In this document: in pieces, positions 7,235-36,729 of the stretch
How the letters are laid out: each line of letters opens with the position of its first letter
Position numbering within the stretch: position 1 is the stretch's first letter
IMG/VR virus record: IMGVR_UViG_3300028800_000076
Location: 12,205 to 76,204 of that record
Length of the DNA stretch: 64,000 nucleotides
DNA from: a virus
Reading direction: 5' to 3' (one strand)
Made by a program: the position numbers and the translations under genes
The notes under the pieces: model-generated
The model's input: only the letters and a program-made list of their open reading frames with translations
What the model was told of the DNA's origin: nothing
Database searches by the model: none

Positions 7235-7510
7235 ATGAAAGACTACAAGATGCCCGGTCATGACTGCTTGCGCTGTCATGGTGTGCTGAATGGTGCAACG
7301 AACGTCACCAACAACGCCATGCCGAAAGACGGCGATCTCACCATCTGTATCTACTGCGGCCACCTCATGGCCTTCACCGACGATCTCAGTCTGCGTGAGC
7401 TTACCGCAGAGGAGCAGGAGTGGTGCAACAAGAGCAACCTAATCACTCTCGCCAAAGAGTCCGTTAAGGACATTAAGGCTGTCCACCCTGACAGGAGGAC
7501 GCTGCAATGA
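7235..7510 (+). CDS. Zn-finger hypothetical protein
   Basis: CxxC...CxxC; GGAGG SD. Confidence 0.65.
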   Translation: MKDYKMPGHDCLRCHGVLNGATNVTNNAMPKDGDLTICIYCGHLMAFTDDLSLRELTAEEQEWCNKSNLITLAKESVKDIKAVHPDRRTLQ

Positions 7511-8052
7511 TCGTCGGGTACGCTCGCGTCTCAACGACTGAGCAGAACCTGGACCTCCAGATCAAGGCCCTGAAGGAGGCGGGCTGTGAGAAGATTTACT
7601 CCGACAAAGCCTCCGGCAAGAATATGGACCGCCCAGAATGGGCGAAGTGCCGCAGGTATATCTCCACGGGAGATACTCTGGTCTGCTGGAAGCTTGATCG
7701 TGTTTCCCGCTCCATGCTTGATCTCATCACCACGGTGCAGTCGCTGGATGAGCGAGGCGTGGGCTTCAAGGTGGTGACCGCGCCTATCGACACCACCACA
7801 GCGCAGGGCCGCCTGATCTTCGGCATCTTCGCAGCACTGGCTGAGTTCGAGCGCGCCCTGATCCGGGAGCGTGTCCAGGCTGGCGTGAAGGCCGCAAAGG
7901 AACGCGGCGTCCAGTTCGGCAGGCCCCGCAAGGTCACCGTGGAGGTTCTGGAGCGCGCCAATGATCTGCTGGTGGCCGACCCCGAGATGACTGTACGCAA
8001 GGCAGCAGAGAAGCTAGGCGTCTCTAAGAGCGCTCTTTATCGGGCTCTCTAG
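7507..8052 (+). CDS. small serine recombinase (resolvase/invertase, Hin/Pin family)
   Basis: GYARVST catalytic Ser, KLDRVSRS, AEFERALIRER, GRPR and C-terminal HTH. Confidence 0.95.
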   Translation: MIVGYARVSTTEQNLDLQIKALKEAGCEKIYSDKASGKNMDRPEWAKCRRYISTGDTLVCWKLDRVSRSMLDLITTVQSLDERGVGFKVVTAPIDTTTAQGRLIFGIFAALAEFERALIRERVQAGVKAAKERGVQFGRPRKVTVEVLERANDLLVADPEMTVRKAAEKLGVSKSALYRAL

Positions 8053-9203
8053 GCGGCCTCCTGCCGCTTCTCCAGCGCATCACCCACCTTCTTGAAGGCT
8101 TCGGCCATGGCTTTCATATGGCTACGACTGGGATCGTAGGCACAAACCTCGAAGAGCATCAGCTTGGAGTTGACCTCTTCCGTGATCGGAAAGCTGCCGT
8201 GCCCCTTGAAGCGCTTGAAGGCCGGGAGGTTATAGAGCGGCTCCACATAGCCAGCACGCACCGGCACGCCCTCCGCCCTCAGAGCCTTCACTACCCAGTC
8301 GCGGTCTCTGACCACCTCAGCCGCCCACATATAATAGACGTGCTTGCAGCCCTCGCGCTGGATCGGCGGCATGATCCACGGAATGTCCTTGACCATGTGC
8401 GTTAGCTCTTCGGCCAGTTCGATGCGGCCTGTGATGATCGCCTCGCGCTTGGATAACTGCGCCAGGGCGATAGCGGCCGTGATCTCGGTCATCCGAAGAT
8501 TAAGACCCGGAACGACGGTATCAGCCAACTCAGAATGATTACGATATAGCCGCATCCGATCAGCCAGAACGTCGTTGTCAGTAACGCAGAGTCCTCCTTC
8601 TCCACATTGAATATGCTTATGCACATTAAGTGAGAACACACCAATATCACCCACAGTGCCAGCATACTTGCCGTCCTCCATGGCAAAGGGAGCCTGCGCA
8701 TTGTCTTCGATCATGATGGTCTTCGCGCCACAGTGACGCTTCCAGCGTGCCAACTCGGCTGGGTGGCCAAAGATGTTTGGCACGATGATAGCCCTGGTCT
8801 TGGTCCCAGGCACGCCATCCATATTGAAGGTCTTGGCTTCGATGTCATTGAACTTGATGTTCGCGCCCAGGAACGCTGGGGCAGCCGCTGTGGCGCTCAT
8901 GGTATAGGGCGATGTGATCACCTCATAACCCTTAAATACGCCTGCCGCCATGCAGGCCACCAGCAATCCTGACGTGGCGCTATTCACAGCCACCGCATGC
9001 TTAGAGCCGATCATATCCGCGAAGGTCTGCTCCAGCGCCTCGACACGCAGGCCGCCGTGTAGCTCGCCCCCCAGGTAACCGCTGAGGGGCCCAGCACGCA
9101 GCACGGATGTGGCCATGCTGATCTCCTCCGGCCCTATCGTGTTGAAGGGCCGGAGAGACTGCTTGATGGCCGCAGGACCGCCGTCGATGGCCAGAACAGT
9201 CAT
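8049..9203 (-). CDS. DegT/DnrJ/EryC1/StrS sugar aminotransferase (PseC-like)
   Basis: AVNSATSGL, IEDNAQA, FSLNVHKHIQCGEGG (PLP Lys). Start MTVLAIDGG overlaps the upstream stop. Confidence 0.9.
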   Translation of the reverse strand: MTVLAIDGGPAAIKQSLRPFNTIGPEEISMATSVLRAGPLSGYLGGELHGGLRVEALEQTFADMIGSKHAVAVNSATSGLLVACMAAGVFKGYEVITSPYTMSATAAAPAFLGANIKFNDIEAKTFNMDGVPGTKTRAIIVPNIFGHPAELARWKRHCGAKTIMIEDNAQAPFAMEDGKYAGTVGDIGVFSLNVHKHIQCGEGGLCVTDNDVLADRMRLYRNHSELADTVVPGLNLRMTEITAAIALAQLSKREAIITGRIELAEELTHMVKDIPWIMPPIQREGCKHVYYMWAAEVVRDRDWVVKALRAEGVPVRAGYVEPLYNLPAFKRFKGHGSFPITEEVNSKLMLFEVCAYDPSRSHMKAMAEAFKKVGDALEKRQEAA

Positions 9204-9628
9204 GATCTTTTCTCCAATGCAGCGATAGAACGCATGACATGAATGAGCGTTTCTGCTCGTTCTATCTGGCCCGCCCTCTTGGCTTCTCCAATCTCTTTGG
9301 AGAACTGTTTCTGTAGCAATCGCAGTGGGGGTCGCAGATAAGACAATCTCTGCGACCCCCTTCTCATCCCCCTTGATACCTGAGAGGAACGAACGCCGTG
9401 AGATGCACAGGTGTCTGCGTCGGCGTTTTCTGACGGCATAACCGTCAACACATCCAGCCACTGGGCTGTCAGTGTTCCTGCGGCCCGTTTAGCGATAGAC
9501 CGGGCCAGTTGCGGAGATGGTCGAAATTCAGGGTGAGCATCTGACGTATTTTTAATCGCACCTTCCACAGCGCGCAAGATGCGACGTTGCGATGGGGTAG
9601 CTCGTTTATAAAGCGAAACCATCGGCAA
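9200..9628 (-). CDS. hypothetical basic phage protein
   Basis: Fills the gap between pseB and the aminotransferase; has its own promoter. Confidence 0.55.
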   Translation of the reverse strand: MPMVSLYKRATPSQRRILRAVEGAIKNTSDAHPEFRPSPQLARSIAKRAAGTLTAQWLDVLTVMPSENADADTCASHGVRSSQVSRGMRRGSQRLSYLRPPLRLLQKQFSKEIGEAKRAGQIERAETLIHVMRSIAALEKRS

Positions 9629-9656
9629 AAGATAGCCCGAAATGGGTTAGTGTCAA
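9629..9656 (-). promoter_or_regulatory. promoter with operator in the spacer
   Basis: TTGACA-CTAACCCATTTCGGGC-TATCTT on the minus strand. Confidence 0.65.
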
Positions 9657-10507
9657 GTATCCTGGAGGGCCTGCCGTAACTCAGCCACGCTCATGCGCCG
9701 TGCCTTGTCGCTGCTGTTGCCCTTGGCCATGGATTCGTGGCGCTTCTCCCATGTCGGAAGCCCTGTGACACGCACCGGCACACCTAGCGCCTCCGCAAGA
9801 TCGCCCAGGCGGTAGGCTGGCAGTGTCGGGATGGCCAGTTCGCCACCCTTCATGGTTTGGATTGTGGATAGAACCAAGTCCACAGCCTCGGACATCCGCA
9901 TAAAGAATCTTGTGCATTCTAGATCGGTCACCGGAAGCACGGTCGCGCCCTTCGCAATCATGGCCCGCCACACGGGCACGACTGAGCCAGTCGAGTTCCA
10001 GACATTGCCATAACGGCAGGCAGCAAACCTGGGCCCCTTCCAGCCTGTGGTGTTGTTTGCGGCCAGGAAGATGCTCTCAGCCAGCGCCTTGGAGCAGCCA
10101 TAGGGGCTCACCGGCTCAAAGGCTTTGTCGCTGGAGAGCGCGACCACCTTCTTCACGCCAGCGTCTTGGGCTGCTTCGATCACGTTGATCGCGCCATCCA
10201 CATTGGTCTTGACCATTTCGACCGGATTATAATTACCGACCTCGATGCGCTTGAGGGCCGCAGCATGAACCACAACCTCGATACCTTCCATGGCCCGCCG
10301 TAGTCGGTCCCTGTCGCGTACATCTCCGATCATGAAACGAGTGATCTCAGAGCGGGCGCGAACCTTGAGTGCTTCAGCCTGTTGAAACTGTCGAAATTCC
10401 CCACGCGAGAAGACCACAATACGCTGGACGCTCAGGTCGAGCAGCAGCCGTCTCACAAAGGCGTCGCCAAAGGCTCCCGAGCCCCCCGTAATCAGCACGC
10501 TCTTCAT
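9653..10507 (-). CDS. pseB: UDP-GlcNAc 4,6-dehydratase (PseB/FlaA1 family)
   Basis: TGGSGAFG, IGDVRD, HAAALK, LSSDKA, YGCSK, RYGNV..STGSVVP. Confidence 0.88.
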   Translation of the reverse strand: MKSVLITGGSGAFGDAFVRRLLLDLSVQRIVVFSRGEFRQFQQAEALKVRARSEITRFMIGDVRDRDRLRRAMEGIEVVVHAAALKRIEVGNYNPVEMVKTNVDGAINVIEAAQDAGVKKVVALSSDKAFEPVSPYGCSKALAESIFLAANNTTGWKGPRFAACRYGNVWNSTGSVVPVWRAMIAKGATVLPVTDLECTRFFMRMSEAVDLVLSTIQTMKGGELAIPTLPAYRLGDLAEALGVPVRVTGLPTWEKRHESMAKGNSSDKARRMSVAELRQALQDT

Positions 10508-10761
10508 TTATTGGCTTTCTCCAGCAGAATATCGGCATGGCACGGCAGCGGTGAGCACCAGCACACCAAGTCCTTGCCCTTCAGATCATGTACCTCAGCG
10601 CAGACTAAGGCTTCGGAGAAGTGCTTGCGATACTTCTCGATGCATTCCTCGCGCGTGCCGTCCTTACCGACCACATAGGGGTTTCCCCACTTGGTTGGCC
10701 TGCCGACATAGACCGCGTTAGCAGGTCTATGCCTGTCCCGCATGTTCCAGACCTTAGGCAC
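10504..10761 (-). CDS. DUF4326 domain protein
   Basis: VYVGRPTKWGNPY...LKGKDLVCWCSPLPCHADIL. Confidence 0.85.
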   Translation of the reverse strand: MPKVWNMRDRHRPANAVYVGRPTKWGNPYVVGKDGTREECIEKYRKHFSEALVCAEVHDLKGKDLVCWCSPLPCHADILLEKANK

Positions 10762-11764
10762 TGATCATCTCCCAGGTTAGGGCTTGGCCGCGCTTAAGTC
10801 TCCGGATCGTGTGCTTGCCCAGAATTTTGGGAAGCTCTTTTGGGGGAAGTCCATAGGCCGGACGGATCGAGCGGACATTCTCATTGGTGAATATCTCTCC
10901 GGCCTCCATGTTCTCCACGACATAGAGCGAGCGGCGGAACTGCTTTGATGATTCTTGACTGGTTGGTGCCCTAGGCGTGTTTATCGCAGTCCAGGTATCG
11001 CGCACAGTCTTGCACATACCTTTGAATTCTTCGGGCTCCATGCTGAATTCAGCGTCCTCGATATCATCCTCACGCGAGACGCAAAAATGCTTCTCGATAA
11101 TAGATGCACCAAGCGCAGTCGCAGCAATAGGTATCTCCACGCCCACGGTATGGTCTGAAATTCCTGTCACAAAATGCGAACGTCCGATCTTTCTCAAATC
11201 GGCCTCAGCCACAGGCGTAGGATAGCCACTAATGCACGCTAGCGCCGTGGCATTATTTCCTGCCGCCACCATTGCGGCATCAATCTCCTCCTCAGAGGCC
11301 ATGCCAGTCGAGATAATGAGCGGCTTTCCTGTTCTGGCCACAGCCTTGATCAAAGGAATATCCACAATCTCCATGCTGGCTATCTTATAGGCTGGGCACT
11401 CCAAGCTCTCTAAAAGCTCAAGCCCGGTCTTATCAAAGACAGAGGAGAAAACTGTCTGGCCATATTGTTTGGCGAGATGGAAAATACTCTCTACCAAGCC
11501 GGGAGGTGTCTGGGCCTTGCGATAAAGTTCGTGAAGCTTGCGGCCCTTCCATGGGCCCTCCTTAATGATAAAGTCGGACCCATCACTATCAATTGTTAGA
11601 CTATCAGCGGTATAGCACTGAATTTTGACGGCATCTGCTCCTGCTCCAGCAGCTAGGCCCATCAGATAGGCTGCTTTCTCAAACGAGCCCTGATGATTGC
11701 CGCTAATCTCCGCAATCATATATGGAGGTTCGCCAGGACCAATCTTGCGGCCGTTAATGATCAC
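10754..11764 (-). CDS. pseI: nonulosonic acid synthase (PseI/NeuB family, C-terminal SAF domain)
   Basis: IAEISGNHQG, ADAVKIQ, KIASMEI, IISTGMA, GISDHT, IEKHF, FRRSLYV...RSIRPAYGL. Confidence 0.9.
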   Translation of the reverse strand: MIINGRKIGPGEPPYMIAEISGNHQGSFEKAAYLMGLAAGAGADAVKIQCYTADSLTIDSDGSDFIIKEGPWKGRKLHELYRKAQTPPGLVESIFHLAKQYGQTVFSSVFDKTGLELLESLECPAYKIASMEIVDIPLIKAVARTGKPLIISTGMASEEEIDAAMVAAGNNATALACISGYPTPVAEADLRKIGRSHFVTGISDHTVGVEIPIAATALGASIIEKHFCVSREDDIEDAEFSMEPEEFKGMCKTVRDTWTAINTPRAPTSQESSKQFRRSLYVVENMEAGEIFTNENVRSIRPAYGLPPKELPKILGKHTIRRLKRGQALTWEMISA

Positions 11765-11955
11765 GAAGGTATCTCTCCGAGTTTCATCATTTGATCGGCA
11801 ATGAACCGATCATTCTGATTAATTTGCCGCAATACAGTCCTTGTCTCTTCGGGGGCCTTCTCAAGCGCGATGCGCAAAAGCTCCATCCACAGCCCATTAT
11901 TGTGACGACGTGTCTCCTCTATGAGACCGATGGTTGTGTGTTGCGCAATGTTCAT
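11761..11955 (-). CDS. hypothetical protein
   Basis: ATGA overlaps at both ends. Confidence 0.65.
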   Translation of the reverse strand: MNIAQHTTIGLIEETRRHNNGLWMELLRIALEKAPEETRTVLRQINQNDRFIADQMMKLGEIPS

Positions 11956-13967
11956 GACACTCTCACGCTTGCAGTCGCCGCAATGGATGGCCCAACGATA
12001 TCACTCTTCACCTTGTCTTCGGCCACAGCCTTCTTGATCACACCCAGCGTCCGGTCATAGGCGTTTACGATGCGGCGCATGTCGGCTTCATTGTGGGCGT
12101 ACATGAAGTTGTGGCTGGCGATGATGAGCACGCCGTTCTTGATCATCTCCTGCATGTACAACGTCTTGATATCCTCAGCGGTGTTCATGCCAACGGCTAT
12201 GAAGTTCACGCGCGAGAAATAAGAACCCGTGATGCGCAGGCAGTGGATGCCGTGCTTTTCCTGCATGAAGGAGACCAGCGTGGAAATCTCGCGGTTCTTC
12301 GCCATCAGCGCATCATGCACGGGCTCACGCTCCATCTTCTCGATAACTGCGAGCGAGGCGGCGAGCGAGAGCGTCTCGCCAAAGAACGTGCCGCTGAAGC
12401 AGACCTGATCCATCAGCTTCATGTACTTTTTCTTACCGACCAGGGCGCTGATCGGCATGCCGTTGCCCATGGCCTTGCCGAAGGTGGCCAGATCAGGGGT
12501 AACCCCCCAGACTTTCTGCGCTCCCCCCAGGCCAAACCGGAATCCCGTGATGATCTCATCAAAGATCAGCAGCGTGCCAGTGAGATTACAGAGAACGCGC
12601 AATCTTGCGAGGAATTCTGGATCGGTCTCCGGCTCCACAATGACGCAGGCAAAGCGCTTGGTGACCAAAGCCTTCTCGGCAAACGTGATATCGCCATGCC
12701 GCATGACGGTGGTGAAGTCGCGGATGCCTTCGGGCACGCCGATGTTGCGCACCGGGTCCCGCGCGATGGCCCAGTCCATCCAGCCGTGATAGCCCGCACT
12801 CAGAATATGGTCGCGGCCGGTCATGGCCCTGGCAAGCCTCACCGCAGCGCTGGTGACATCCGTGCCGTTCTTGCCAAAGCGCGCCATCTCAGCGCATGGA
12901 ATGTAACGATTCAGCTTCTCGGCCAGCTTATGCTCTAGATCGGTGGCGAGACTAAAGCTGATCCCACGATCAAGCTGCATACGGATAGCACGATCAACAT
13001 CAGGGTCCCGATGACCCAGAATAACTGGGAGCAAACCACCCACAAGGTCGACATAATCGTTCCCATCAACGTCATAGACGTGTCCTCCGCTGCCGTGTGT
13101 GACAAATAAGGGCGACTCCACGGGATACTGGAGCTTGCTCTTGGAGTAGGTCTGCGTACCCAGCGGAATGAGGCGCTCCGTGACGCCCAGCATGGCATGG
13201 GAGACCGTGTGCTCGCGCTTCACCGGCTCCTCAACCACAAGCTCATCCCAGAAGCGCTCATTGCGCGGATGATACTTGTTGAGATTGCGATACTCTGGGT
13301 TCTTATCCAGAAAGCGTTTGATGCCCAGATACGAGAAATCCAGGCACTTTTCAGCCAGTATCTGACACAGATGATAGTCATCCTGGGTGTCGAGCACCCA
13401 TCGCTCCTTGTGCATGTCCGGAAGCGGGCAAGTCAGGTTCACGATCTTGTAGCGCATCCTGTTACGCAGGATGTATTGCGTCACGGTGTTGCGATCAGAG
13501 GGTCTGGTGGCCTTTTCGTTGGCCTCCTTGAGTGCCTTAACCGTCATCACCTCGCAGTCGAGTCCGTCAGGCCATGTCGGCGGGTCGATATTGGAGGCGT
13601 AGTCGGCTCCTGTGGCCTCTCGTAGGGCCGCAACCTCGCCCACAACGCGCGGATCAATAAAGGGGCAATCCCCTGTCAGACGAATTACAACATCCGCCTC
13701 CGCAGCGATGGCTGCTCCTGTAAATCTAGACAAAACATCAGTCTCGCTACCCCTGAAACACTTAATGCTTTTCTTTTTGCACCACTCTTCAATTACATTG
13801 TCTTGTTCGAGAGTGCTGGTGGCTATCCACACCTCGTTGACGCCGGGAATGCTATATGCAGACCCCGTTACCCAATCTAAAACAACACCCCCGCCAAGGG
13901 ACATCAACACTTTCCCCCTCAGACGAGTGCTGCCAATCCTTGCAATGACAATCGCAACCGTTTTCAC
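11952..13967 (-). CDS. SpsF/KdsB-like cytidylyltransferase fused to a class III (GSA-AT-like) aminotransferase
   Basis: N-half: ARIGSTRLRGKVL, RGSETDVLSRF, RLTGDCP. C-half: DVDGNDYVD, KNGTDVT, LIFDEIITGFR, FGKAMGNG. Confidence 0.9.
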   Translation of the reverse strand: MKTVAIVIARIGSTRLRGKVLMSLGGGVVLDWVTGSAYSIPGVNEVWIATSTLEQDNVIEEWCKKKSIKCFRGSETDVLSRFTGAAIAAEADVVIRLTGDCPFIDPRVVGEVAALREATGADYASNIDPPTWPDGLDCEVMTVKALKEANEKATRPSDRNTVTQYILRNRMRYKIVNLTCPLPDMHKERWVLDTQDDYHLCQILAEKCLDFSYLGIKRFLDKNPEYRNLNKYHPRNERFWDELVVEEPVKREHTVSHAMLGVTERLIPLGTQTYSKSKLQYPVESPLFVTHGSGGHVYDVDGNDYVDLVGGLLPVILGHRDPDVDRAIRMQLDRGISFSLATDLEHKLAEKLNRYIPCAEMARFGKNGTDVTSAAVRLARAMTGRDHILSAGYHGWMDWAIARDPVRNIGVPEGIRDFTTVMRHGDITFAEKALVTKRFACVIVEPETDPEFLARLRVLCNLTGTLLIFDEIITGFRFGLGGAQKVWGVTPDLATFGKAMGNGMPISALVGKKKYMKLMDQVCFSGTFFGETLSLAASLAVIEKMEREPVHDALMAKNREISTLVSFMQEKHGIHCLRITGSYFSRVNFIAVGMNTAEDIKTLYMQEMIKNGVLIIASHNFMYAHNEADMRRIVNAYDRTLGVIKKAVAEDKVKSDIVGPSIAATASVRVS

Positions 13968-14593
13968 TAGATTTTTCCCTCTAAAAGAGCCGTGACAGCT
14001 TGTTGTCCCGAGAGACCGAGTATTGATGTGAGCTTTTTGAGCTTGGCATAGCTCAATCCAAGTCTTTGGGAGGCGACTTTCATCGGAACCATTTCTTCTT
14101 CAATGGCAATCCATTGTGTCCAATTCCGATTTATCGACTGCGTATACTCATCAGCCCAACGCACATTCCCTGGTTCATAATTTCCGTTTGGGTCTACCCG
14201 GTCTAATTCTAGTTTTTCTGGGCATTCTCCCATATAATTAAGAAAATTTTCAAACTTCATCCACGGCTCATAAATCGTAATGCCTCGTCCGTGGTAGTTT
14301 GGATAATCCTTACAATTTGGATTTGTGCAGCGCTCTATCATCTTAGCCCAGGATTTATATGTTCTGGACATTCTTCCTCGTCGAGAATGGCCATGTATTA
14401 CACGAGCCGATCCGTCCAACTTGAGGCATCCACATGATTTTGTATGGCCTCTATTCAGCAGTTTTCCCATAGCGATATGGGGCTTACCGCAGTCACAAGA
14501 ACAAAGCCACGCAGATCGGCCTTCGACATTCTTCCACCGCTCTATAACCGTTAAACGGCCGAATCTCATCCCAGCCAACCGCAGCGCCCTCAC
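13967..14593 (-). CDS. free-standing HNH homing endonuclease
   Basis: RFGRLTV...WLCSCDCG...SCGC, RGITI, LDRVDPNGNYEPGNVRWA; AT-rich; GTG start overlaps the upstream stop. Confidence 0.85.
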   Translation of the reverse strand: MRALRLAGMRFGRLTVIERWKNVEGRSAWLCSCDCGKPHIAMGKLLNRGHTKSCGCLKLDGSARVIHGHSRRGRMSRTYKSWAKMIERCTNPNCKDYPNYHGRGITIYEPWMKFENFLNYMGECPEKLELDRVDPNGNYEPGNVRWADEYTQSINRNWTQWIAIEEEMVPMKVASQRLGLSYAKLKKLTSILGLSGQQAVTALLEGKI

Positions 14594-15459
14594 CGATATC
14601 CTCCCATTTCGCGCACCTTCAGACATATCTCCAGCACGTCCAGGGCCTCCTGTCCCGTGCACCCGATTGTCTCCTTGCCATCGATCCTATCGATAAAGGC
14701 CTGCATCTCGTCCTTGTAGTCCTGATCGTAGCTGCCTTCGGTGTCCCAGTAATGAAGAGCGCCTTCTTCAGCTTCTGGGACATGCAATGTAGCTCTGCGC
14801 TCCGGCAGATTTACTTCGATCCAGCCTCCTGGGCCGCCAATGGCGAAGCCGCGCCGCTCTGGCTTCGTCACATAATCCAGGTGGATGTGGCTGATGACGG
14901 AGCGCTGATGCGACAACAGAATATCGGCCGCATCGTCATGCTCGCCACCGCTTACGGCCGCCGAGTGAACCTTCGCAGGGCCCAACAGATAAAGGGCAAG
15001 ATCAATCTCGTGGCTCCAGTTCAAGACTACGCCATCACGTAGATACTGCGGCTTATCGTTATACTGAGCACAGCAGAATGTAGCCCATGTGGGAGAGCCT
15101 ATAAGCCCACCATCCAGCCATGCCTTGGCTTGCTTTACCGCGCTATTAAAGCGCTGGTTATAGCCGCACATCAATGGATAGGATTTGCCTCCAAGGATAA
15201 TCAGTTGATCCATAGTCGCGGCTATGGGCTTCTCTACAAAAACAGGCTTATCCCTTGCCATAAGCAAGTGAGCGAAATGGTGGGTTGTCGGACTTGCAAT
15301 AACCACAGCATCAGACTTCTCGATCAACTCTTGCTCTGACTCAACAGAGCGCCCCATGCTGTCATCCGGATCGTAGACATAAATGGTATGCCCAAGCTCA
15401 AGAAGATTATGAGCATGCCGCCTGCCAATCGACCCAAAGCCAATGATACCAACCTTCAC
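14590..15459 (-). CDS. Gfo/Idh/MocA NAD(P)-dependent oxidoreductase
   Basis: GIIGFGSIGRRH, IASPT..H, VFVEKPI, GYNQRF, SHEID. Confidence 0.9.
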   Translation of the reverse strand: MKVGIIGFGSIGRRHAHNLLELGHTIYVYDPDDSMGRSVESEQELIEKSDAVVIASPTTHHFAHLLMARDKPVFVEKPIAATMDQLIILGGKSYPLMCGYNQRFNSAVKQAKAWLDGGLIGSPTWATFCCAQYNDKPQYLRDGVVLNWSHEIDLALYLLGPAKVHSAAVSGGEHDDAADILLSHQRSVISHIHLDYVTKPERRGFAIGGPGGWIEVNLPERRATLHVPEAEEGALHYWDTEGSYDQDYKDEMQAFIDRIDGKETIGCTGQEALDVLEICLKVREMGGYR

Positions 15460-16088
15460 GACTCCCTCCTCGGCCAGCCGCGCGTTAGGTCCTTGCGCAG
15501 CGTAAAGACACCCTCGCGGCCTTCGCCCTTGCCGAAGATCACAAACTGCTCCAGCAGGTACGCAGGATTGGCGAGCCACAGATTGTGGTATGGCATCTTG
15601 TATGTGGTGATGCGGGAGTCGTGGGCGTAGTCCTTGGTGTGCGGCTCCTCTGGCATAAAGTCGTGGATAACCAGAACGCCTTTATCTTCGAGCACGCGAT
15701 CCACCTCGGAGACGATCCTGAACAGGTCCTCGCGGTCCACCAGATAGAGAAAAAAGCCCAGGACCACGAGATCGAAGCTACCTGGGCCGTAGCCCAGCAC
15801 ATCAGCGCTGCCGACACGCAGGCCTAGCTCACGATAGCGCCTGCGGCCCTCCTCAATGGCATCCCAGGATAGGTCGCATCCCTTACAGGATTCGGGTCCA
15901 TAGCGGGTGTGTAGCTCATCGAGCCGCCAGCCATTGCCGCAAGCCACCTCCAGAATGTTCTTGGGCTTGATGCGGTCGTTGGAGAAGATTTCCCTGAGCA
16001 CAGGATCATCAACGCGCGACTTTCCACGGTTACGCTTATGCCAATTGTTACCTTCCGACTCTCTAACGATTTCCGATTGCTTGCCCAC
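15456..16088 (-). CDS. class I SAM-dependent methyltransferase
   Basis: ILEVACGNG motif I, GCDLS, FDLVVLGF, VLVIHDF. Confidence 0.85.
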   Translation of the reverse strand: MGKQSEIVRESEGNNWHKRNRGKSRVDDPVLREIFSNDRIKPKNILEVACGNGWRLDELHTRYGPESCKGCDLSWDAIEEGRRRYRELGLRVGSADVLGYGPGSFDLVVLGFFLYLVDREDLFRIVSEVDRVLEDKGVLVIHDFMPEEPHTKDYAHDSRITTYKMPYHNLWLANPAYLLEQFVIFGKGEGREGVFTLRKDLTRGWPRRES

Positions 16089-16644
16089 GGCTGATCCTCC
16101 CCATGTCTTCCACGAACTCCACAGGGGTTTTCCATCCGGCCGGGAGCACTATCTTTTCTCGATCTTTAACCCGGTGCAAGGTGCCTTTACCCTCTTGTTT
16201 AATCGCCGGTATCTCTTTCCCTGCCACAATCCAGGACCAAACAGACTCAAGGGCAAAAAGGGCGTGATCCTGGAGGTGCCGATAGCTGCTTTCGAGGGTT
16301 TCTTTTTCAGGGTTGAGGAACCTAACCTTGAGTTGGAGCGCGATATCACCTGTGTCCAGACCTTCATCGATGTGGTGGACTGTTACGCCTTTGGGGGTGT
16401 CATCGAACCAGGACCATAGGTTGCAATCTGCCCCGCGATTCCACGGGAGCAATGACCAATGGACATTAAAAATACGGCCGCGATACTTCTCGATCACCTC
16501 CGGCTTGATGATGTGCCTGTGGCCATAGCTGATCACGTAGTCGCAATCAACGAAGGGCTGGTTATGGGCCTGCGTGAGAATAGTGTGATCCTTGAAGATA
16601 TGCTGGATCAGGTCTGGTCTTGTGGTGAGGAGCATGACCTTCAT
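16063..16644 (-). CDS. N10-formyl-THF-dependent formyltransferase (sugar N-formyltransferase type)
   Basis: NVHWSLLPWNRG, GVTVHHIDEGLDTGDI. Confidence 0.88.
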   Translation of the reverse strand: MKVMLLTTRPDLIQHIFKDHTILTQAHNQPFVDCDYVISYGHRHIIKPEVIEKYRGRIFNVHWSLLPWNRGADCNLWSWFDDTPKGVTVHHIDEGLDTGDIALQLKVRFLNPEKETLESSYRHLQDHALFALESVWSWIVAGKEIPAIKQEGKGTLHRVKDREKIVLPAGWKTPVEFVEDMGRISRGQAIGNR

Positions 16645-17204
16645 GGGAAGAACTTTGCAAAGTGGACGAGAGCGATAGGTCTGCCGTTCTCGGACAGGAA
16701 GTGGTCATAGCGCACGCCATCCGGCTGCATGCCAGCAGCCAGCGCTAGCCTCACCATGGCGCGGTTTGATGTGTAGCACCCAGCCTCGATCTTGTGCATG
16801 TGGCACTGCTTTTCGAGAAAGGTCATGACTGCGGACCATGCCTCACGGCCTACGCCCTGGCCCCAATGCTCCTTGCCAATAAGGATGCCCATATTGGCGA
16901 TGCGGTTATGCTCATCGATGTGGGCTGAGATAGTCCCTATATCGAAACGGCCTTGATGTTTGATAAGCCAGATGTGCGAGTTGGCCGGAAAGCTATTGAG
17001 GTAATTATGCTGGCTTTCCTCTGTGTGCTTGCTATGCCGCTGTTCGGAGTATCGGACATTCTCTGGATCATTCAGCCATGCCACCTGGGTGGCAGTCACG
17101 AGGCTGGCACGGTGTGGCTCCAGTGTGAGCCGCTCAGTGGCTAATGTAGCTCGTCGGGGAGCGTCCCGCTGTCCAGACTTCGAAACCCCTTTTGCTTTAG
17201 CCAT
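16641..17204 (-). CDS. RimJ/RimL-type GNAT N-acyltransferase (PseH-like)
   Basis: TERLTL, WLNDPENVRY, GILIGKEHWGQGVG, NRAMVRL. Confidence 0.85.
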   Translation of the reverse strand: MAKAKGVSKSGQRDAPRRATLATERLTLEPHRASLVTATQVAWLNDPENVRYSEQRHSKHTEESQHNYLNSFPANSHIWLIKHQGRFDIGTISAHIDEHNRIANMGILIGKEHWGQGVGREAWSAVMTFLEKQCHMHKIEAGCYTSNRAMVRLALAAGMQPDGVRYDHFLSENGRPIALVHFAKFFP

Positions 17205-17428
17205 TCACGCGATTCCATCCGGACTTTGAGAGGCAGAGACAGGCACGCCGTAATGGCCTTGTGCATGCCGATCTCAGCCGTTTTATGATCAGTGGGGCCG
17301 GGATAGCCTGGGTTATGCTTCTTCTGAAAAGCAATAACCCGGTCTACATCCTTCGACATGAGGACTTCATCGCGCTCCTTCGTGAAGGCCGCGATGGCTT
17401 CCTCAAGGTCGATCTGCTTCTCGGTCAT
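17141..17428 (-). CDS. hypothetical protein
   Basis: TAATG coupling to the vWA gene. Confidence 0.55.
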   Translation of the reverse strand: MTEKQIDLEEAIAAFTKERDEVLMSKDVDRVIAFQKKHNPGYPGPTDHKTAEIGMHKAITACLSLPLKVRMESREWLKQKGFRSLDSGTLPDELH

Positions 17429-18033
17429 TACTGCTTCAGCTTCTGTTTCTCTTCGTCTGTGAAGGCCATCGCCTGACCAGTCGCACCATAGGTGCCGCGC
17501 TTGCTGGCCATAGTCGATAGGGTTGCTCCATAATTTCGCACGGAGGACTGCACAGTGCTGGCAGCAAGGTTGCCGTAGCTTGCGGCTTGCCCCGCATTAT
17601 CGAAGTTTGCGCCCAGGAAGATCACCTGCCAGTTCTTGGCGCGGCATGCATCGAGCAGCTTCTTCGCCTGCTCCACCGAGAGTTCGCGACTGTTATTCTC
17701 GTGGCCATCCGTCATGATGATAATGGCCACCTTGTCGTAGCCGCCTGCGTTGGCGAGGGCGACGATCTTGCCGGTGGCGTCATTCAGCGGGGTCATACCG
17801 CGAGGCGGGGCCTCGGTCGGATCGACTGCTTTCCAGGTTTGCGGCGTGATGCGGTCCCGCAGAATCTGGAAGTCCAGTTTCCCGCTTTCGCTATCAAAGA
17901 CGGCCAGCGTCACGCCGGTATCCACTTTGTCTTCGGCCAGCTTCTTGACGTAGGTATTCACCGAGTTGATGGCCTCAGTCCACTGAGCTTCCATGGAGCC
18001 TGAGCGGTCGAGAAGGATGAAATCATGTTGCAT
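17428..18033 (-). CDS. vWA domain protein
   Basis: LLDRSGSM, GMTPLNDA, IMTDGHEN, FLGAN. Confidence 0.9.
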   Translation of the reverse strand: MQHDFILLDRSGSMEAQWTEAINSVNTYVKKLAEDKVDTGVTLAVFDSESGKLDFQILRDRITPQTWKAVDPTEAPPRGMTPLNDATGKIVALANAGGYDKVAIIIMTDGHENNSRELSVEQAKKLLDACRAKNWQVIFLGANFDNAGQAASYGNLAASTVQSSVRNYGATLSTMASKRGTYGATGQAMAFTDEEKQKLKQ

Positions 18034-18034
18034 T

Positions 18035-18229
18035 TTACTTTGCTCCTTTTGAGCGTTTGGTCGTGGTGACCGGAATGGTTTCCTTGATGTGCCGCAGCAA
18101 CTCGAAGGTGAGTTGGCACAACATCAGGATGGTATGGGCATCCGGGCTGTAACCCCCAAGGCCCTGCCGGGTGGATATCTCCTTGTGCAGGATCAGTTCG
18201 TAGCGTTCGCAGTCCTCGCGTGACAGCAC
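18035..18229 (-). CDS. hypothetical protein
   Basis: Tightly packed in the operon. Confidence 0.5.
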   Translation of the reverse strand: MLSREDCERYELILHKEISTRQGLGGYSPDAHTILMLCQLTFELLRHIKETIPVTTTKRSKGAK

Positions 18230-18582
18230 TAGGCCTTCTCCATCGGATGCTCGCGCTGCATGTCAATGGCGCGCTGGAACCAGCTTACGACGGTCTGCTG
18301 GTCGGTGAGATTATTATGATTCACAATATCCCAACGGGGATCATGACTGCCCTTTAATCCCTGTGGGACGGCGGCATGAAGCGCAAGAATATGTGGGTCG
18401 CATAATTCTAGGTTGTTGGCCCCAAGAATTCCTCTCACGGCATCCAAAGCACCCAGGGCACAGTGAGCATACCCACCCTCTTTACGAGGGGTTTTCCGAA
18501 CATGCTTTGCGTAACCGCCCGGGCGCGCGATCAGGTCTCGCGCCTTCTCCAAATTCTCCACCACTCTCGTCACATCAACCAT
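18229..18582 (-). CDS. DUF6197-like protein (paralog 1)
   Basis: LEKARDLI...HCALGAL...HNN...VVSWFQRAI. Confidence 0.65.
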   Translation of the reverse strand: MVDVTRVVENLEKARDLIARPGGYAKHVRKTPRKEGGYAHCALGALDAVRGILGANNLELCDPHILALHAAVPQGLKGSHDPRWDIVNHNNLTDQQTVVSWFQRAIDMQREHPMEKA

Positions 18583-19431: not shown

Positions 19432-21081
19432 ATGAACCAAGCCCTTCTCCTCGCAGCCGCAGCCAAGAAATACAGGGAACTGGCTGAGCGAGAGCAGTGT
19501 GAAGATGATCTCTACAAGTTCCTTCAGGCAGGCTGGAAGTACATTGACCCCGCCCCTTTTGTCGGCGGCTGGCATCTGGAGGCCATCGCAGAGCACCTGG
19601 AGGCGGTCACCAGGGGCCAGATCAAGCGGTTGCTGATCAACGTGCCGCCCCGCTCCTCCAAAAGCTCCCTGTGCTCTGTGGCATGGCCAGCCTGGACCTG
19701 GGCGCAGTCAGTGCAGGGTCCTTGCTCAGGCCCTCACGTCCAGTTCCTCAGCGCGTCCTATGCGCAGACCCTGGCATTGCGTGATTCGGTCAAGAACCGC
19801 CGCCTGATCGAATCGCCATGGTTCAAGAAAATCTGGGGCGAGCGATTCCAGATGACCTCGGACGTGAACACCAAGGGCCGATTCGAGAACAACAAGGGCG
19901 GGTACAGACTCGCAACGTCTGTAGACGGGGCCCTAACTGGGGAAGGCGGACAGGTCATTTTAGTGGATGACGCCCATAATGCCACCGAGATCGAATCAGA
20001 CTTGGTGCGCGAATCCACCATCATGTGGTGGGACGAGGCCATGAGCACCCGCCTCAATGATCCGGCCACAGGTGCCTTTGTGGTGATCATGCAAAGGCTT
20101 CACCAGGAAGACTTAACGGGCCACATCAAGGACAAGGACCCCAACAACGACTGGACGTGGCTGATGCTGCCCATGGAGCACGACCGCTCCAGGCACTGCA
20201 TCACCTACGCCAAGAATGAATACGGCGAGAAAGAACAACTCTGGGAGGACCCTCGCGAGGAGGAAGACGAGCTTCTGTGCCCCACCCGCTTTCCCCGCGA
20301 GCAGGTGGACCGCCTCAAGGCCCAGCTAGGCCCCTTCGCAGCGGCGGGCCAACTTCAGCAGAGCCCCACGCCCAGAGGCGGCGGTATCATCAAGGAGGAG
20401 TGGTGGCAGGACTGGGAGGAGGATTCCTACCCGGTATTTGAGTACCTCATTGCCTCTGTGGATACGGCCTACACCGAGAAAGAGGAAAACGATCCCAGCG
20501 CGCTGACCATCTGGGGCGTCTTTCGCGAATACCGCACCGGCAACATGAAGATCATGCTGGTCTGGGCCTGGGAGGGCAGATTCGAGCTACACGACCTCGT
20601 GGAGGAAATCCTAACCACTTGTACGGTCAGTCCTATTTCCAATACACGCCAGGAGAAGCACGCAGGCAGGCCACGCTTTCCGGTCCATCTTTTATTGGTG
20701 GAATCCAAGGCTTCGGGATTGTCGGTGGGGCAAGAACTCTACCGGCTCATTGCGGGCAATGCGCCCTTCAACATCCAATTCCCCAACCTCAATAAGGGCC
20801 GATACACCCAGGACAAGGTGGCCCGGCTTTATTCGGTCCAGCATATCTTTGCGGACAAGATGGTCTACGCCCCACTGGGTAGAACCTTTGTGGACAAGGT
20901 GATCGATCAGGTCTCGGCCTTCCCCAAGGTCTCCCACGACGACTTGGTGGATACGGTCTCCCAGGCGCTCAAGTACCTCCGAGACACCGGCATCTTGGTG
21001 CGTCGGGACGAGCAGGCACTAGATTTAGATAGGGAAATGGCTTACCGTCCCAAGCAATTACCATTGTACCCAACCGGCTAG
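19432..21081 (+). CDS. terL: terminase large subunit
   Basis: INVPPRSSKS Walker A, ILVDD Walker B, IMQRLH, ASVDTA, VESKASG, DKVAR, HDDLVDT nuclease motifs. Confidence 0.95.
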   Translation: MNQALLLAAAAKKYRELAEREQCEDDLYKFLQAGWKYIDPAPFVGGWHLEAIAEHLEAVTRGQIKRLLINVPPRSSKSSLCSVAWPAWTWAQSVQGPCSGPHVQFLSASYAQTLALRDSVKNRRLIESPWFKKIWGERFQMTSDVNTKGRFENNKGGYRLATSVDGALTGEGGQVILVDDAHNATEIESDLVRESTIMWWDEAMSTRLNDPATGAFVVIMQRLHQEDLTGHIKDKDPNNDWTWLMLPMEHDRSRHCITYAKNEYGEKEQLWEDPREEEDELLCPTRFPREQVDRLKAQLGPFAAAGQLQQSPTPRGGGIIKEEWWQDWEEDSYPVFEYLIASVDTAYTEKEENDPSALTIWGVFREYRTGNMKIMLVWAWEGRFELHDLVEEILTTCTVSPISNTRQEKHAGRPRFPVHLLLVESKASGLSVGQELYRLIAGNAPFNIQFPNLNKGRYTQDKVARLYSVQHIFADKMVYAPLGRTFVDKVIDQVSAFPKVSHDDLVDTVSQALKYLRDTGILVRRDEQALDLDREMAYRPKQLPLYPTG

Positions 21082-21538: not shown

Positions 21539-21663
21539 TGGACCACGCAATCACATTGGGTGATGTTCTGGTGGTTCTGGCCGTGTTTGTCGGCGTTCTG
21601 GGCGCGCTCGGTCTTCTGGTTCTTGTGATCAGCCTTACGAATCCATTCAGGAGCGGCCATTAA
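21538..21663 (+). CDS. 41-aa single-TM peptide
   Basis: MDHAITLGDVLVVLAVFVGVLGALGLLVLVISLTNPFRSGH; TAATG overlaps at both ends. Confidence 0.6.
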   Translation: MDHAITLGDVLVVLAVFVGVLGALGLLVLVISLTNPFRSGH

Positions 21664-35455: not shown

Positions 35456-35848
35456 GTGGCTGTCAATTATAGCCAGACTGCAATCAACGACCGGCTTTTG
35501 GGGGTTATTGCGGCCATTGATGGGGGCGCGACCAACGGGAGCCTGTTACTGATGGCGGGCTCCATATTGGTATCCACAATTCAATTGGCTAGACCTTGCG
35601 GGACTGTGAACGGCGGGGTACTAACCTTTGCGGGTACTCCGCTCCTGGACCCCTCGGCCGCAGCGACTGGAAACGTGGATAGCGCCATCATTCAAGACGG
35701 GAATGGTTCCACCATGGTCTCCGGCCTGACCGTGGGCATCCCCCTTTCAGCCAGCGTCGATATCGTCATCAGCAACGGCCTGAACAGCACCCTGGTTACG
35801 GCAGGCCAGACCGTCGAGCTTCTTGCAGCACAAATAACGGGATCGTAA
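35456..35848 (+). CDS. virion structural protein
   Basis: Beta-rich; TAATG coupling to the next gene. Confidence 0.65.
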   Translation: MAVNYSQTAINDRLLGVIAAIDGGATNGSLLLMAGSILVSTIQLARPCGTVNGGVLTFAGTPLLDPSAAATGNVDSAIIQDGNGSTMVSGLTVGIPLSASVDIVISNGLNSTLVTAGQTVELLAAQITGS

Positions 35849-36729
35849 TGGCAAAACTGACCGAAACCTTTAATGATCGCGCTCGTGCCAATGGTGGCAT
35901 GATCCACATTGAGCCGCCGCATGAACCCCTGACCAATGAACCGTACCCCCCGCTTGTATCGGTTACAGCCGGGCTGATAACTCCCCAGCCAGTTCCGGAA
36001 GCCAAGCCACAAGAGCTTAAGGTGGCGCTGATCGGGACTGCGCCCTCCTCGCGGCTCCTGGCCCCCTTCAACGACAACTCCTGGCAAATCTGGGCCTGCT
36101 CGCCGGGCAACATGAACACCATCCCCAGGTGGGATGTCTGGTTCGAGCTTCACGGCAATCTGCTCTGGGAAGAGAACAAGGGCTATGGCGAGCCTTATAT
36201 CAACTGGCTCAAAACCCATAGAACGCCGGTCTATATGCAAGACCAGCGTTATTGTCCCAATGCCTCGACCTTTCCCATGAAGGAGATGGTCCAGGAGTTC
36301 GGTAGGGACTTCTTCACGTCAAGCTTTGCCTGGATGATGGCCTTCGCCATCCACAAAGGGGCCAAGGAGATCGCCATGTATGGCATCGATATGGCGTCCC
36401 GTGACGAATACATCCTTCAGCGGCCCGGCTTCTACTTCTTCCGGCACCTCGCCCAGCAGCGCGGCATTAAGGTGTCAGCGCCTCATGAATCTGATATTAT
36501 GCAGTCGCCTGGGCTTTATGGTTATTCGGACGTGACCCCGATGGGCCGTAAAATCCTGGCGCGCGAGCAAGAGATCAACAAGAGGCGGGACGGCATGCGG
36601 GCCGAGCTTCAGCGTCTTCAGCAGAACCTGACCTATCTCGATGGTGCCTCGGAAGACATCGACTATTTTAAGAGTATCTGGATGGGCCAAGGGTCCGCCG
36701 TGCCCGAAGGGGGGCTAAACAATGGCTAA
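35848..36729 (+). CDS. putative CMP-nonulosonate transferase (Maf/GT42/GT29-like fold)
   Basis: KVALIGTAPSS...QIWACS...DVWFELH resembles sialylmotif-L / IxGxGPS; FTSSFAWMMAFAIHKGAKEIAMYGIDM resembles sialylmotif-S / GxxEIxLxGxD. Confidence 0.65.
   Translation: MAKLTETFNDRARANGGMIHIEPPHEPLTNEPYPPLVSVTAGLITPQPVPEAKPQELKVALIGTAPSSRLLAPFNDNSWQIWACSPGNMNTIPRWDVWFELHGNLLWEENKGYGEPYINWLKTHRTPVYMQDQRYCPNASTFPMKEMVQEFGRDFFTSSFAWMMAFAIHKGAKEIAMYGIDMASRDEYILQRPGFYFFRHLAQQRGIKVSAPHESDIMQSPGLYGYSDVTPMGRKILAREQEINKRRDGMRAELQRLQQNLTYLDGASEDIDYFKSIWMGQGSAVPEGGLNNG

Follow-up and report, generated by a model that had tools for sequence, protein, structure and literature searches.

A pseudaminic acid operon in a clade of uncultured phages pairs an oxidoreductase with a cytidylyltransferase–aminotransferase fusion and may add a further amine to the sugar backbone

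Can a phage operon for a pseudaminic-acid-type nonulosonate place a further amino group on the sugar backbone? The question is raised by a minus-strand sugar operon (8049–17204) in a 64,000-nucleotide stretch of viral DNA, hereafter the window, which covers bases 12205–76204 of the 76,204-bp IMG/VR virus record IMGVR_UViG_3300028800_000076 (G000 for the whole record), rated 100% complete. A sequence-only reading of the interval 11952–16644 had listed four types of tailoring enzyme beyond the core pathway—a class-III aminotransferase fused to a cytidylyltransferase, an oxidoreductase, a formyltransferase and a methyltransferase—and had proposed that oxidation and transamination at C8, followed by formylation or methylation, would give a triamino sugar. 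All four types are present as intact minus-strand open reading frames (ORFs), and a fifth ORF inside the interval encodes an HNH homing endonuclease. In our judgment, an extra backbone amine on pseudaminic acid (Pse) is the best reading of the operon, though a tentative one to which we give somewhat less than an even chance.

In what follows, L002–L009 denote related phage loci (L002–L008 from IMG/VR, L009 more distant), and labels from L010 upward denote cellular loci; the gene neighborhoods of close relatives were rebuilt from these loci with tblastn and phmmer. New here are the identification of the formyltransferase as a PseJ homolog and of the fifth ORF as an HNH gene, a corrected assignment of KdnA, a tree of the aminotransferase domains, the linkage of aminotransferase and oxidoreductase genes in 13 of 13 cellular loci, a network of domain fusions, and the retention of the whole module across a phage clade.

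The aminotransferase domain groups with pseudaminic acid loci and apart from HemL

The C-terminal part of the fusion protein is a class-III aminotransferase domain dependent on pyridoxal phosphate (PLP), whose top family names are those of glutamate-1-semialdehyde aminomutase (GSAM; HemL). The HemL models, however, score below their cut-offs on it (313 against 486 for PRK06209 and 231 against 527 for TIGR00713). In an alignment that draws 69 aminotransferase domains from every locus fetched, Lys498 (the PLP lysine) and Asp470 do not vary. Where HemL has GGVNSPVR, all phage members, and all Pse-locus members except one (L014, with H for Q), have Q-x-x-S-K instead. A maximum-likelihood tree of the domains, rooted on Salmonella HemL, unites the eight phage domains in a single clade (Shimodaira–Hasegawa-like approximate likelihood ratio test, SH-aLRT, 100). 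This clade is nested in a larger one (SH-aLRT 99) that holds all 14 aminotransferases from cellular Pse-type loci, with Salmonella HemL far outside. Judged by these sequence features, the domain is not HemL.

The same evidence bears on the plainest alternative, namely that the operon yields nothing unusual—only the cytidine monophosphate (CMP) sugars CMP-Pse5Ac7Ac or CMP-Pse5Ac7Fo—with the aminotransferase domain being either a relic or a true glutamate-1-semialdehyde aminomutase for haem synthesis. The best NCBIfam and PDB names of the domain, glutamate-1-semialdehyde 2,1-aminomutase, agree with such an account. But the sub-threshold HemL scores, the replaced substrate motif and the distance from HemL in the tree all contradict it, as does the conservation of the fusion at 50–74% identity, with intact catalytic residues, in more than 100 phage-type proteins, and we regard it as very improbable.

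Below the GSAM entries, the domain's best PDB matches are aminoglycoside C-6' aminotransferases; NeoN and ForI appear lower in the ranking (within the best 60 of 156 matches). Both GenB1 and NeoN, themselves class-III enzymes, put an amino group on a sugar carbonyl that a partner dehydrogenase has generated. The phage domain shares their class-III family, and GenB-type entries are its closest matches once GSAM is set aside; the aminoglycoside enzymes differ in taking aminoglycoside aldehydes as substrates, in having no cytidylyltransferase fusion, and in matching with weaker E-values than GSAM (1e-40 versus 1e-57). A literature search on class-III aminotransferases in Pse loci gave nothing relevant; one Legionella gene table lists the same neighbors. 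The most similar cellular aminotransferases by identity (33–37%) are eight members of the same clade from Syntrophomonadaceae loci (L010–L019), in which a tblastn search of the surrounding 10 kb turned up none of PseB, PseC and PseI.

A Gfo/Idh/MocA oxidoreductase is the candidate source of a keto intermediate

The oxidoreductase of the operon is a member of the Gfo/Idh/MocA family and is called Gfo below. Its listed ORF runs to 15579; a GTG at 15459 overlaps the upstream stop codon (GTGA) and starts the Rossmann motif. The catalytic residues E76-K77-P78 and H150 are invariant in 11 homologs. An AlphaFold2 (AF2) model with a predicted local distance difference test (pLDDT) of 90 finds its best fold match in GnnA (7BVJ; template modeling score, TM, 0.86), a 3-dehydrogenase of uridine diphosphate (UDP)-N-acetylglucosamine (GlcNAc), and the high-ranking matches also include YjhC and NanOx, both sialic-acid oxidoreductases. 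By sequence, the best PDB match is 3EZY (T. maritima TM_0414), and the highest-scoring NCBIfam model is inositol 2-dehydrogenase. GnnA delivers its product to the transaminase GnnB; in this pair, as in WbpB/WbpE, the keto sugar comes from a Gfo/Idh/MocA dehydrogenase and is then aminated by a PLP enzyme, which is the division of labor that we envisage for the phage pair. GnnA/GnnB and WbpB/WbpE differ from it in that their aminotransferases are of the DegT family and their substrates are UDP-hexoses oxidized at C3.

The association of the two enzymes recurs in cellular genomes. An oxidoreductase gene adjoins the aminotransferase gene in 13 of 13 cellular loci with PseB, PseC or PseI—this neighbor is an aldo-keto reductase at 11 loci and of the Gfo/Idh/MocA family at the other 2—and the hosts of these loci span Nitrosopumilaceae, Patescibacteria, Melainabacteria, Desulfovibrionaceae, Lentisphaerota, Alphaproteobacteria and Dehalococcoidia. 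In the related phages, a Gfo homolog is kept in the cluster with the aminotransferase in all eight loci (L002–L009). Together with the Pse-locus clade of the aminotransferase and the GnnA-like fold of Gfo, these linkages uphold the oxidize-then-aminate logic of the sequence-only reading.

The pairing could instead serve side-chain chemistry, with the aminotransferase and the oxidoreductase remodeling an N-acyl group (for example, 4-hydroxybutyrate from 4-aminobutyrate) that the methyltransferase then methylates. The class-III family does include gamma-aminobutyrate (GABA) and omega-amino-acid transaminases; aldo-keto reductases, the usual cellular partner, typically reduce aldehydes; and the known N-acyl variants of Pse and legionaminic acid (Leg) include hydroxybutyryl, glyceroyl, methylated glyceroyl and glutamyl groups. 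Yet the phage operon has no coenzyme A ligase, ATP-grasp enzyme or acyl carrier with which to activate such an acid, and the fusion or adjacency of the aminotransferase to an SpsF-type or PseF-type cytidylyltransferase points to the nonulosonate itself as the substrate. We consider remodeling of the side chain improbable.

The methyltransferase shows a related pattern of association, with homologs lying between the reductase and aminotransferase genes in three cellular loci (L033, L037 and L046). TIGR03587, the model for the pseudaminic-acid-associated methylase, has no match in G000 at E ≤ 1, nor does it appear among NCBIfam matches at E ≤ 0.001; a structural neighbor cluster carrying that same name matches with a TM of 0.83. 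In one Patescibacteria Pse locus (L020:7829-8998 and L020:11282-12694), a FemAB-family protein is encoded directly before the Gfo and aminotransferase pair, and the SpsF-type cytidylyltransferase carries a fused DUF218 domain. Enzymes of the FemAB family attach aminoacyl groups to amines.

Domain fusions tie the tailoring enzymes to CMP activation

The SpsF-type domain at the N terminus of the fusion is the only nucleotidyltransferase in the operon. Its PDB match is the cytidylyltransferase 6OEW (E 3e-26); it has no match to the PseF model TIGR03584 and weak matches to KdsB-type models. We searched this domain alone against 1.84 billion representative proteins and examined the best 150 relatives (mostly 37–56% identical), which comprise stand-alone forms as well as fusions to aminotransferases, aldo-keto reductases and methyltransferases. 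Among these relatives, which carry P-labels, the Aldo_ket_red fusions are P0336, P0367 and P0381 and the methyltransferase fusions are P0369, P0308 and P0297. The cytidylyltransferase halves of P0336, P0367, P0381 and P0369 are 37–42% identical to the window's domain, and the match between the methyltransferase half of P0369 and the window's own methyltransferase is full-length, at 34% identity (E 1e-33). In most cellular Pse-type loci, a cytidylyltransferase of the SpsF or PseF type follows the aminotransferase or is fused to it. Because aminotransferase, reductase and methyltransferase are each joined to this cytidylyltransferase in some lineage, the fusions are good evidence that all three would act around the CMP-activation step of one sugar.

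Whether that sugar is pseudaminic acid can be questioned. Gfo, the aminotransferase, the SpsF-type transferase and the methyltransferase might form a separate path to another acid sugar or an aminocyclitol, leaving CMP-Pse to a host PseF. The match of the cytidylyltransferase domain to KdsB-type models in place of PseF, the inositol 2-dehydrogenase name of Gfo, the Syntrophomonadaceae loci that hold same-clade aminotransferases without Pse genes, and the phage's reliance on an outside enzyme for the PseG step (see below) would all suit such a second CMP-product. Set against these, the module accompanies PseB, PseC and PseI in L002–L008 and PseI in L009, it often occurs without any other cytidylyltransferase in the 13 cellular loci, and no gene supplying another substrate is present. 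SpsF of B. subtilis, moreover, behaves as an activating enzyme for legionaminic acid (PMC7439481). A separate product is distinctly unlikely in our estimate.

Precedents for redox tailoring of nonulosonates at C8

Two described systems resemble the module most closely. In prophages of Acinetobacter baumannii, EpaA, which joins CTP_transf_3 to an aldo-keto reductase, and EpaB, a short-chain dehydrogenase/reductase (SDR), convert Pse5Ac7Ac to its 8-epimer, as seen by nuclear magnetic resonance (PMC12053666). That pair and the present module are both phage-borne, both act on pseudaminic acid (here by prediction), and both combine a fusion of CTP_transf_3 to a keto-handling enzyme with a separate dehydrogenase (PMC12053666); the EpaA-like cytidylyltransferase–reductase architecture also appears among the relatives of the window's domain at 41–42% identity. 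The differences are equally specific. EpaA ends in an aldo-keto reductase, whereas the C terminus of the phage fusion is Aminotran_3; EpaB is an SDR, whereas the phage partner is Gfo, whose gene lies directly upstream of the fusion apart from the intervening HNH insert; the core pathway does not accompany EpaA/EpaB, whereas this phage encodes PseB-like and PseC-like proteins and PseI; and the expected outcome is an amine instead of the 8-epimer.

The second system, ElaABC of A. baumannii KL49 and Vibrio vulnificus, is built on legionaminic acid: the Gfo/Idh/MocA enzyme ElaA is proposed, on the strength of structures and docking, to oxidize the C8 hydroxyl of CMP-Leg5,7Ac2, the SDR ElaC reduces the 8-ketone, and ElaB is the cytidylyltransferase (PMC13656337). 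Here too a Gfo/Idh/MocA enzyme and a cytidylyltransferase share a cassette, and 3EZY is the nearest PDB entry for both ElaA and the phage Gfo; the contrast lies in ElaC, which gives an epimer and whose place is taken here by an aminotransferase, and in the substrate, which is legionaminic rather than pseudaminic acid. The layout of the phage module is therefore that of Epa and Ela with an aminotransferase replacing the second reductase. By analogy, these systems appear to be better precedents than KdnB/KdnA and would favor C8, through an 8-keto intermediate. The C8 assignment of the sequence-only reading survives as a reasonable choice of site, given that Epa and Ela both act there (PMC12053666, PMC13656337); that the extra amine sits at C8 specifically is, on the same analogy, possible but somewhat doubtful.

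These precedents also lend themselves to stereochemical tailoring. The keto intermediate would then lead to an epimer (8-epi, 7-epi) of Pse5Ac7Fo or Pse5Ac7Ac with two amino groups, and the class-III domain would be a PLP epimerase or racemase at the amine carbon or have no backbone role. EpaA/EpaB and ElaABC, the published nonulosonate redox tailoring systems that we read, all end in an epimer, and the class-III PDB matches include the GenB2 6'-epimerase, isoleucine 2-epimerase and an amino-acid racemase. Epimerization through a ketone, however, calls for a second reductase, which is the aldo-keto domain in EpaA and the SDR ElaC in the Ela system; the phage operon has one oxidoreductase, with the aminotransferase in the place of the second. 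Acylation of the Pse amines, moreover, precedes the PseI step, so that a PLP epimerase would have little scope. We judge epimer formation unlikely and continue to prefer amination.

The analogy first drawn for the locus was with 8-amino-8-deoxy-3-deoxy-D-manno-octulosonic acid (Kdo8N) of Shewanella, made by KdnB and KdnA. Its chemical logic stands, as there too an ulosonic acid is oxidized, transaminated and then CMP-activated. Its description of KdnA as an enzyme resembling GSAM must be abandoned: KdnA is DegT/ArnB-like, its structure (PDB 5K8B) matches the window's PseC-like DegT protein (E 4e-27), and 5K8B is not among the best 60 of 156 PDB matches of the class-III domain. The enzymes of the two routes are not homologous, C8 of Kdo is a primary alcohol, and KdnB is a member of the iron-containing (type III) alcohol dehydrogenase family. 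A survey of these dehydrogenases lists KdnB (PMC5125639).

The formyl branch, the acetyltransferase and the missing PseG

The formyltransferase is best matched in the PDB by 6CI2/6CI4, 'formyltransferase PseJ' (E 2.4e-38 over 145 aligned residues), followed by the F domain of the linear gramicidin synthetase LgrA (E 5e-28), with PurN (2e-11), ArnA and Fmt far behind. Its catalytic Asn-x-His and Asp are kept as N60, H62 and D97, aligned with the PseJ residues, and by this sequence match it is a PseJ homolog. In the original study, PseJ reportedly formylates UDP-4-amino-4,6-dideoxy-L-AltNAc, the product of PseC, an activity with which the PseB-like and PseC-like neighbors of the phage gene agree. 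Because that amine becomes N7 of Pse, the formyl step needs no new amine; most simply, the formyl group would go on N7 and give a known sugar, and the earlier notion that the new amine is formylated is not supported by this assignment. PseJ has been named as the enzyme completing the route to Pse5Ac7Fo (PMC11040635). Like PseJ of Anoxybacillus kamchatkensis (6CI2/6CI4), the phage protein is a short formyltransferase with catalytic Asn, His and Asp in an operon with PseB and PseC; unlike it, the phage enzyme coexists with a GNAT acetyltransferase and is optional in its clade, a PseJ-type gene being present in two of nine phage loci (the window and L002).

The GNAT gene lies just beyond the interval 11952–16644, yet is part of the same operon. 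It is conserved in L002–L008 and has homologs in the cellular loci L032, L038 and L049. The cellular locus L033 carries a PseJ-like gene and a methyltransferase gene where the near-identical L038 has the GNAT; because a PseJ-like enzyme stands in place of the GNAT there, the GNAT is most simply, and probably, a PseH equivalent. This simpler role led us to reject the reading of the L033/L038 swap as alternative caps (methyltransferase or GNAT) for a new amine.

The core pathway and the PseJ-dependent formyl branch are ordinary and already known. The PseB and PseC equivalogs are the best-matching families of the two corresponding proteins, each scoring below its cut-off. At E ≤ 1, the PseG model TIGR03590 matches nothing in G000, nor in the related virus records of L002, L004, L006, L007 and L008; two of the six records are rated complete. 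As PseG substitutes in the phage we considered a GT1 enzyme and a xylose-isomerase-like TIM barrel (AP_endonuc_2), the latter a neighbor of PseF in some cellular loci with no detected PseG, and G000 has no match to either. Since the phage encodes no PseG, the host itself may supply part of the Pse pathway.

Cellular loci with the same module do carry PseG, in L042 as a PseG–PseH fusion. A xylose-isomerase-like TIM-barrel protein (AP_endonuc_2, Pfam-confirmed for L038) occurs in cellular Pse-type loci in which searches found no PseG (L032:6792-8012, L033:11945-12709, L038:7975-8733 and L046:6291-7064), where it adjoins the cytidylyltransferase or precedes PseI; in L032 it forms a fusion with a PseH-like GNAT. 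The barrel protein might replace PseG or carry out a different tailoring step.

A proposed pathway and the points that weigh on it

Gene identities, catalytic residues, conservation and the links by domain fusion are directly shown by the analysis, and the substrates, the site, the sequence of reactions and the end product are inferred from them. Under the amination reading, the PseB-like dehydratase and the PseC-like aminotransferase would first produce UDP-4-amino-4,6-dideoxy-L-AltNAc, whose amine, the later N7 of Pse, would be formylated by the PseJ homolog, acetylated by the GNAT, or both. After removal of UDP by a host or other enzyme, PseI would condense the sugar with phosphoenolpyruvate to Pse5Ac7Fo or Pse5Ac7Ac. 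Gfo would then oxidize a secondary hydroxyl to a ketone, most likely at C8 by analogy with ElaA and EpaA/EpaB and less likely at C4, and the class-III domain would turn the ketone into an amine. CMP activation by the fused SpsF-type domain could come before or after amination; the substrate is the CMP-sugar in the Ela model and the free sugar in the Kdo8N route. The methyltransferase would methylate the sugar, possibly at the new amine, and a CstII-fold transferase encoded among the virion genes would use the resulting CMP-sugar.

Several observations weigh against an extra amine or against its placement. The literature searched describes no 8-amino or triamino nonulosonate, so the earlier statement that 8-amino nonulosonates occur in bacterial glycans found no backing; to our knowledge, Kdo8N, an octulosonate, is the sole 8-amino case. 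The same literature contains no assay of any enzyme of this module. The fold of Gfo is generic, with 405 PDB matches at E ≤ 0.001. YjhC and NanOx work via a 4-keto intermediate of sialic acid, and because both are among its structural neighbors, C4 would be an alternative, less likely site. The partner in most cellular loci is an aldo-keto reductase, of a family that usually reduces carbonyls, and a carbonyl-reducing partner would fit the reverse order (deamination, then reduction) or work on a side chain. The UDP-sugar hydrolase PseG is lacking in six phage records, and the phage alone therefore cannot make the substrate. The likeness to EpaA and EpaB is drawn from their published descriptions, and that to ElaA from its description and the shared 3EZY entry. 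Finally, with the GNAT probably just a PseH equivalent, the operon shows no dedicated capping enzyme for a new amine.

In its fullest form, the proposal is that a clade of uncultured 60–77-kb aquatic phages makes a CMP-activated 5,7,8-triamino nonulosonate—8-amino-8-deoxy-Pse, N7-formylated or N7-acetylated and methylated—that the CstII-fold enzyme loads onto the phage's own virion proteins, and that the same module makes triamino sugars in many bacterial and archaeal phyla. Taken whole, this is doubtful. If true, a 5,7,8-triamino nonulosonate would be a sugar class not described from any organism, and a virus would be making a tailored acidic sugar with which to equip its own particle. The exchange of a hydroxyl for an amine would open a new family of bacterial and phage sialic-acid-like sugars with a positive or cappable third nitrogen, by a general enzymatic route in which the ketone intermediate that is reduced in Epa and Ela is aminated. 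Nonulosonates shape recognition by immune lectins, phages and antibodies, and so an altered charge at C8 would be of consequence to surface biology and to the chemoenzymatic synthesis of sugar probes.

The module is retained across a phage clade

A whole clade of phages has kept the operon. The fusion protein has more than 120 full-length homologs of about 670 residues at 50–74% identity, many of them on 70–77 kb contigs. The seven IMG/VR loci L002–L008 hold a common gene set of GNAT, methyltransferase (where present), Gfo, fusion, PseB, PseC and mostly PseI, in varying order, beside homologous terminase and portal genes. The methyltransferase gene is not in L004, and no PseI was seen in L003 or in L006, the latter ending within PseC. 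L009 carries the methyltransferase, Gfo and PseI, with the cytidylyltransferase and aminotransferase as separate genes. In four of the phages, a second, unrelated methyltransferase (270–307 residues; L005:3634-4536, L006:5458-6351, L007:4872-5795 and L008:5642-6454) lies between the GNAT and the conserved methyltransferase, the site that the PseJ gene occupies in the window and L002.

Megablast with the operon as query found nothing among 50,697 phage records. A tblastn search of the fusion protein against the same records matched the aminotransferase half alone, mostly in apparent host-derived hemL, GABA-aminotransferase or similar genes, and none of the matches covered the cytidylyltransferase domain; no cultured phage among these records has the fusion. 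Ranked by portal similarity, uncultured phages are nearest, and phages of Pelagibacter, Roseobacter and Caulobacter come next. The best match in 185,579 species-representative genomes is just 30–39% identical, so these genes were not captured recently from a sequenced host.

A candidate user of the CMP-sugar

Among the structural genes of the window, the product of 35848–36729 has no Pfam or PHROG match. Its AF2 model (pLDDT 76) is matched best by CstII in Foldseek (E 3.8e-6) and by other sialyltransferases, with the Maf entry 5MU5 at E 0.019. It has 876 homologs, 30 of which were aligned and are 60–76% identical, and a homolog stands beside pseI in L009. The modeled fold makes this protein a plausible candidate user of the CMP-sugar. 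It is more conserved than the sugar enzymes. A Maf/MptE glycosyltransferase was also sought, and its model PF01973 gave no match in the genome.

Gene content of the operon and its surroundings

The operon lies between a serine recombinase gene and the terminase region, with virion genes further downstream (Table 1), and its G+C content, 0.548, resembles the 0.566 of the window. In order of transcription it encodes GNAT, formyltransferase, methyltransferase, Gfo, the HNH ORF, the cytidylyltransferase–aminotransferase fusion, PseI, the PseB-like protein, a small ORF and the PseC-like protein. Junctions between the genes overlap (ATGA, GTGA, TAGTG); the operon is translationally coupled, and its genes are real and intact.

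Table 1. Sugar operon genes, fusion domains and other features of the window
Feature	Position	Strand	Basis
Serine recombinase	7507–8052	+	Resolvase, E 4.5e-46
PseC-like DegT-family aminotransferase	8049–9203	-	PF01041 E 8.9e-61; TIGR03588 PseC best NCBIfam match, 170 bits, below cut-off 423
Small ORF, 142 aa	9200–9628	-	No family match; between PseB-like and PseC-like genes
PseB-like UDP-GlcNAc 4,6-dehydratase (inverting type)	9653–10507	-	Polysacc_synt_2 E 1.9e-74; TIGR03589 PseB 305 bits, below cut-off 407
PseI, pseudaminic acid synthase	10754–11764	-	TIGR03586 384 bits, above cut-off 340; NeuB equivalog below its cut-off
Fusion protein, 671 aa	11952–13967	-	CTP_transf_3 residues 4–194 and Aminotran_3 residues 286–620; one frame, no stops
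Class-III (PLP) aminotransferase domain	11952–13217	-	Fusion residues ~251–671; Aminotran_3 E 1.4e-46
SpsF-type (COG1861) cytidylyltransferase domain	13218–13967	-	Fusion residues 1–250; CTP_transf_3 (PF02348) E 1.6e-22
HNH homing endonuclease, 231 aa	13967–14662	-	phrog_374 E 1.7e-58; phrog_3377 E 5e-35
Gfo/Idh/MocA NAD(P)-dependent oxidoreductase, 289 aa	14590–15459	-	PF01408 E 1.8e-10; PF22725; PF02894
Class-I S-adenosylmethionine methyltransferase, 210 aa	15456–16088	-	Methyltransf_25 E 3.4e-13; Methyltransf_11
PseJ-type sugar N-formyltransferase, 193 aa	16063–16644	-	Formyl_trans_N E 5.7e-18
GNAT (Acetyltransf_3) acetyltransferase	16641–17204	-	PF13302 E 1.3e-21; TIGR03585 PseH weak match, E 8e-5
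von Willebrand factor A domain protein	17428–18033	-	
DUF6197 protein	18229–18582	-	
Large terminase	19432–21081		
Portal	21663–24335		
Sialyltransferase-fold protein among structural genes	35848–36729	+	AF2 model; fold match CstII

The 231-residue ORF was considered as a missing sugar enzyme and ruled out by its match to HNH homing endonucleases; on this assignment, the gene is a mobile insert inside the operon. It overlaps both of its neighbors and breaks neither, and it is not at this place in related phages. HNH-like ORFs, recognized by motif, lie at other operon positions in L006 (9890-10441) and L007 (7498-8004), and because the three phages carry these ORFs at different positions, the pattern suggests independent invasions.

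Two smaller points concern the downstream end of the operon. The probable start of the PseC-like gene is Met87 of a 470-residue ORF (8049–9461). The small ORF that precedes this gene has a 45%-identical homolog in L004 (13549-14025), at a different place, and is for that reason probably a real small gene. At the operon edge, the serine recombinase gene, on the opposite strand, meets the PseC-like gene end to end; the genes for the von Willebrand factor A domain protein and the DUF6197 protein lie directly upstream of the operon and share its strand.

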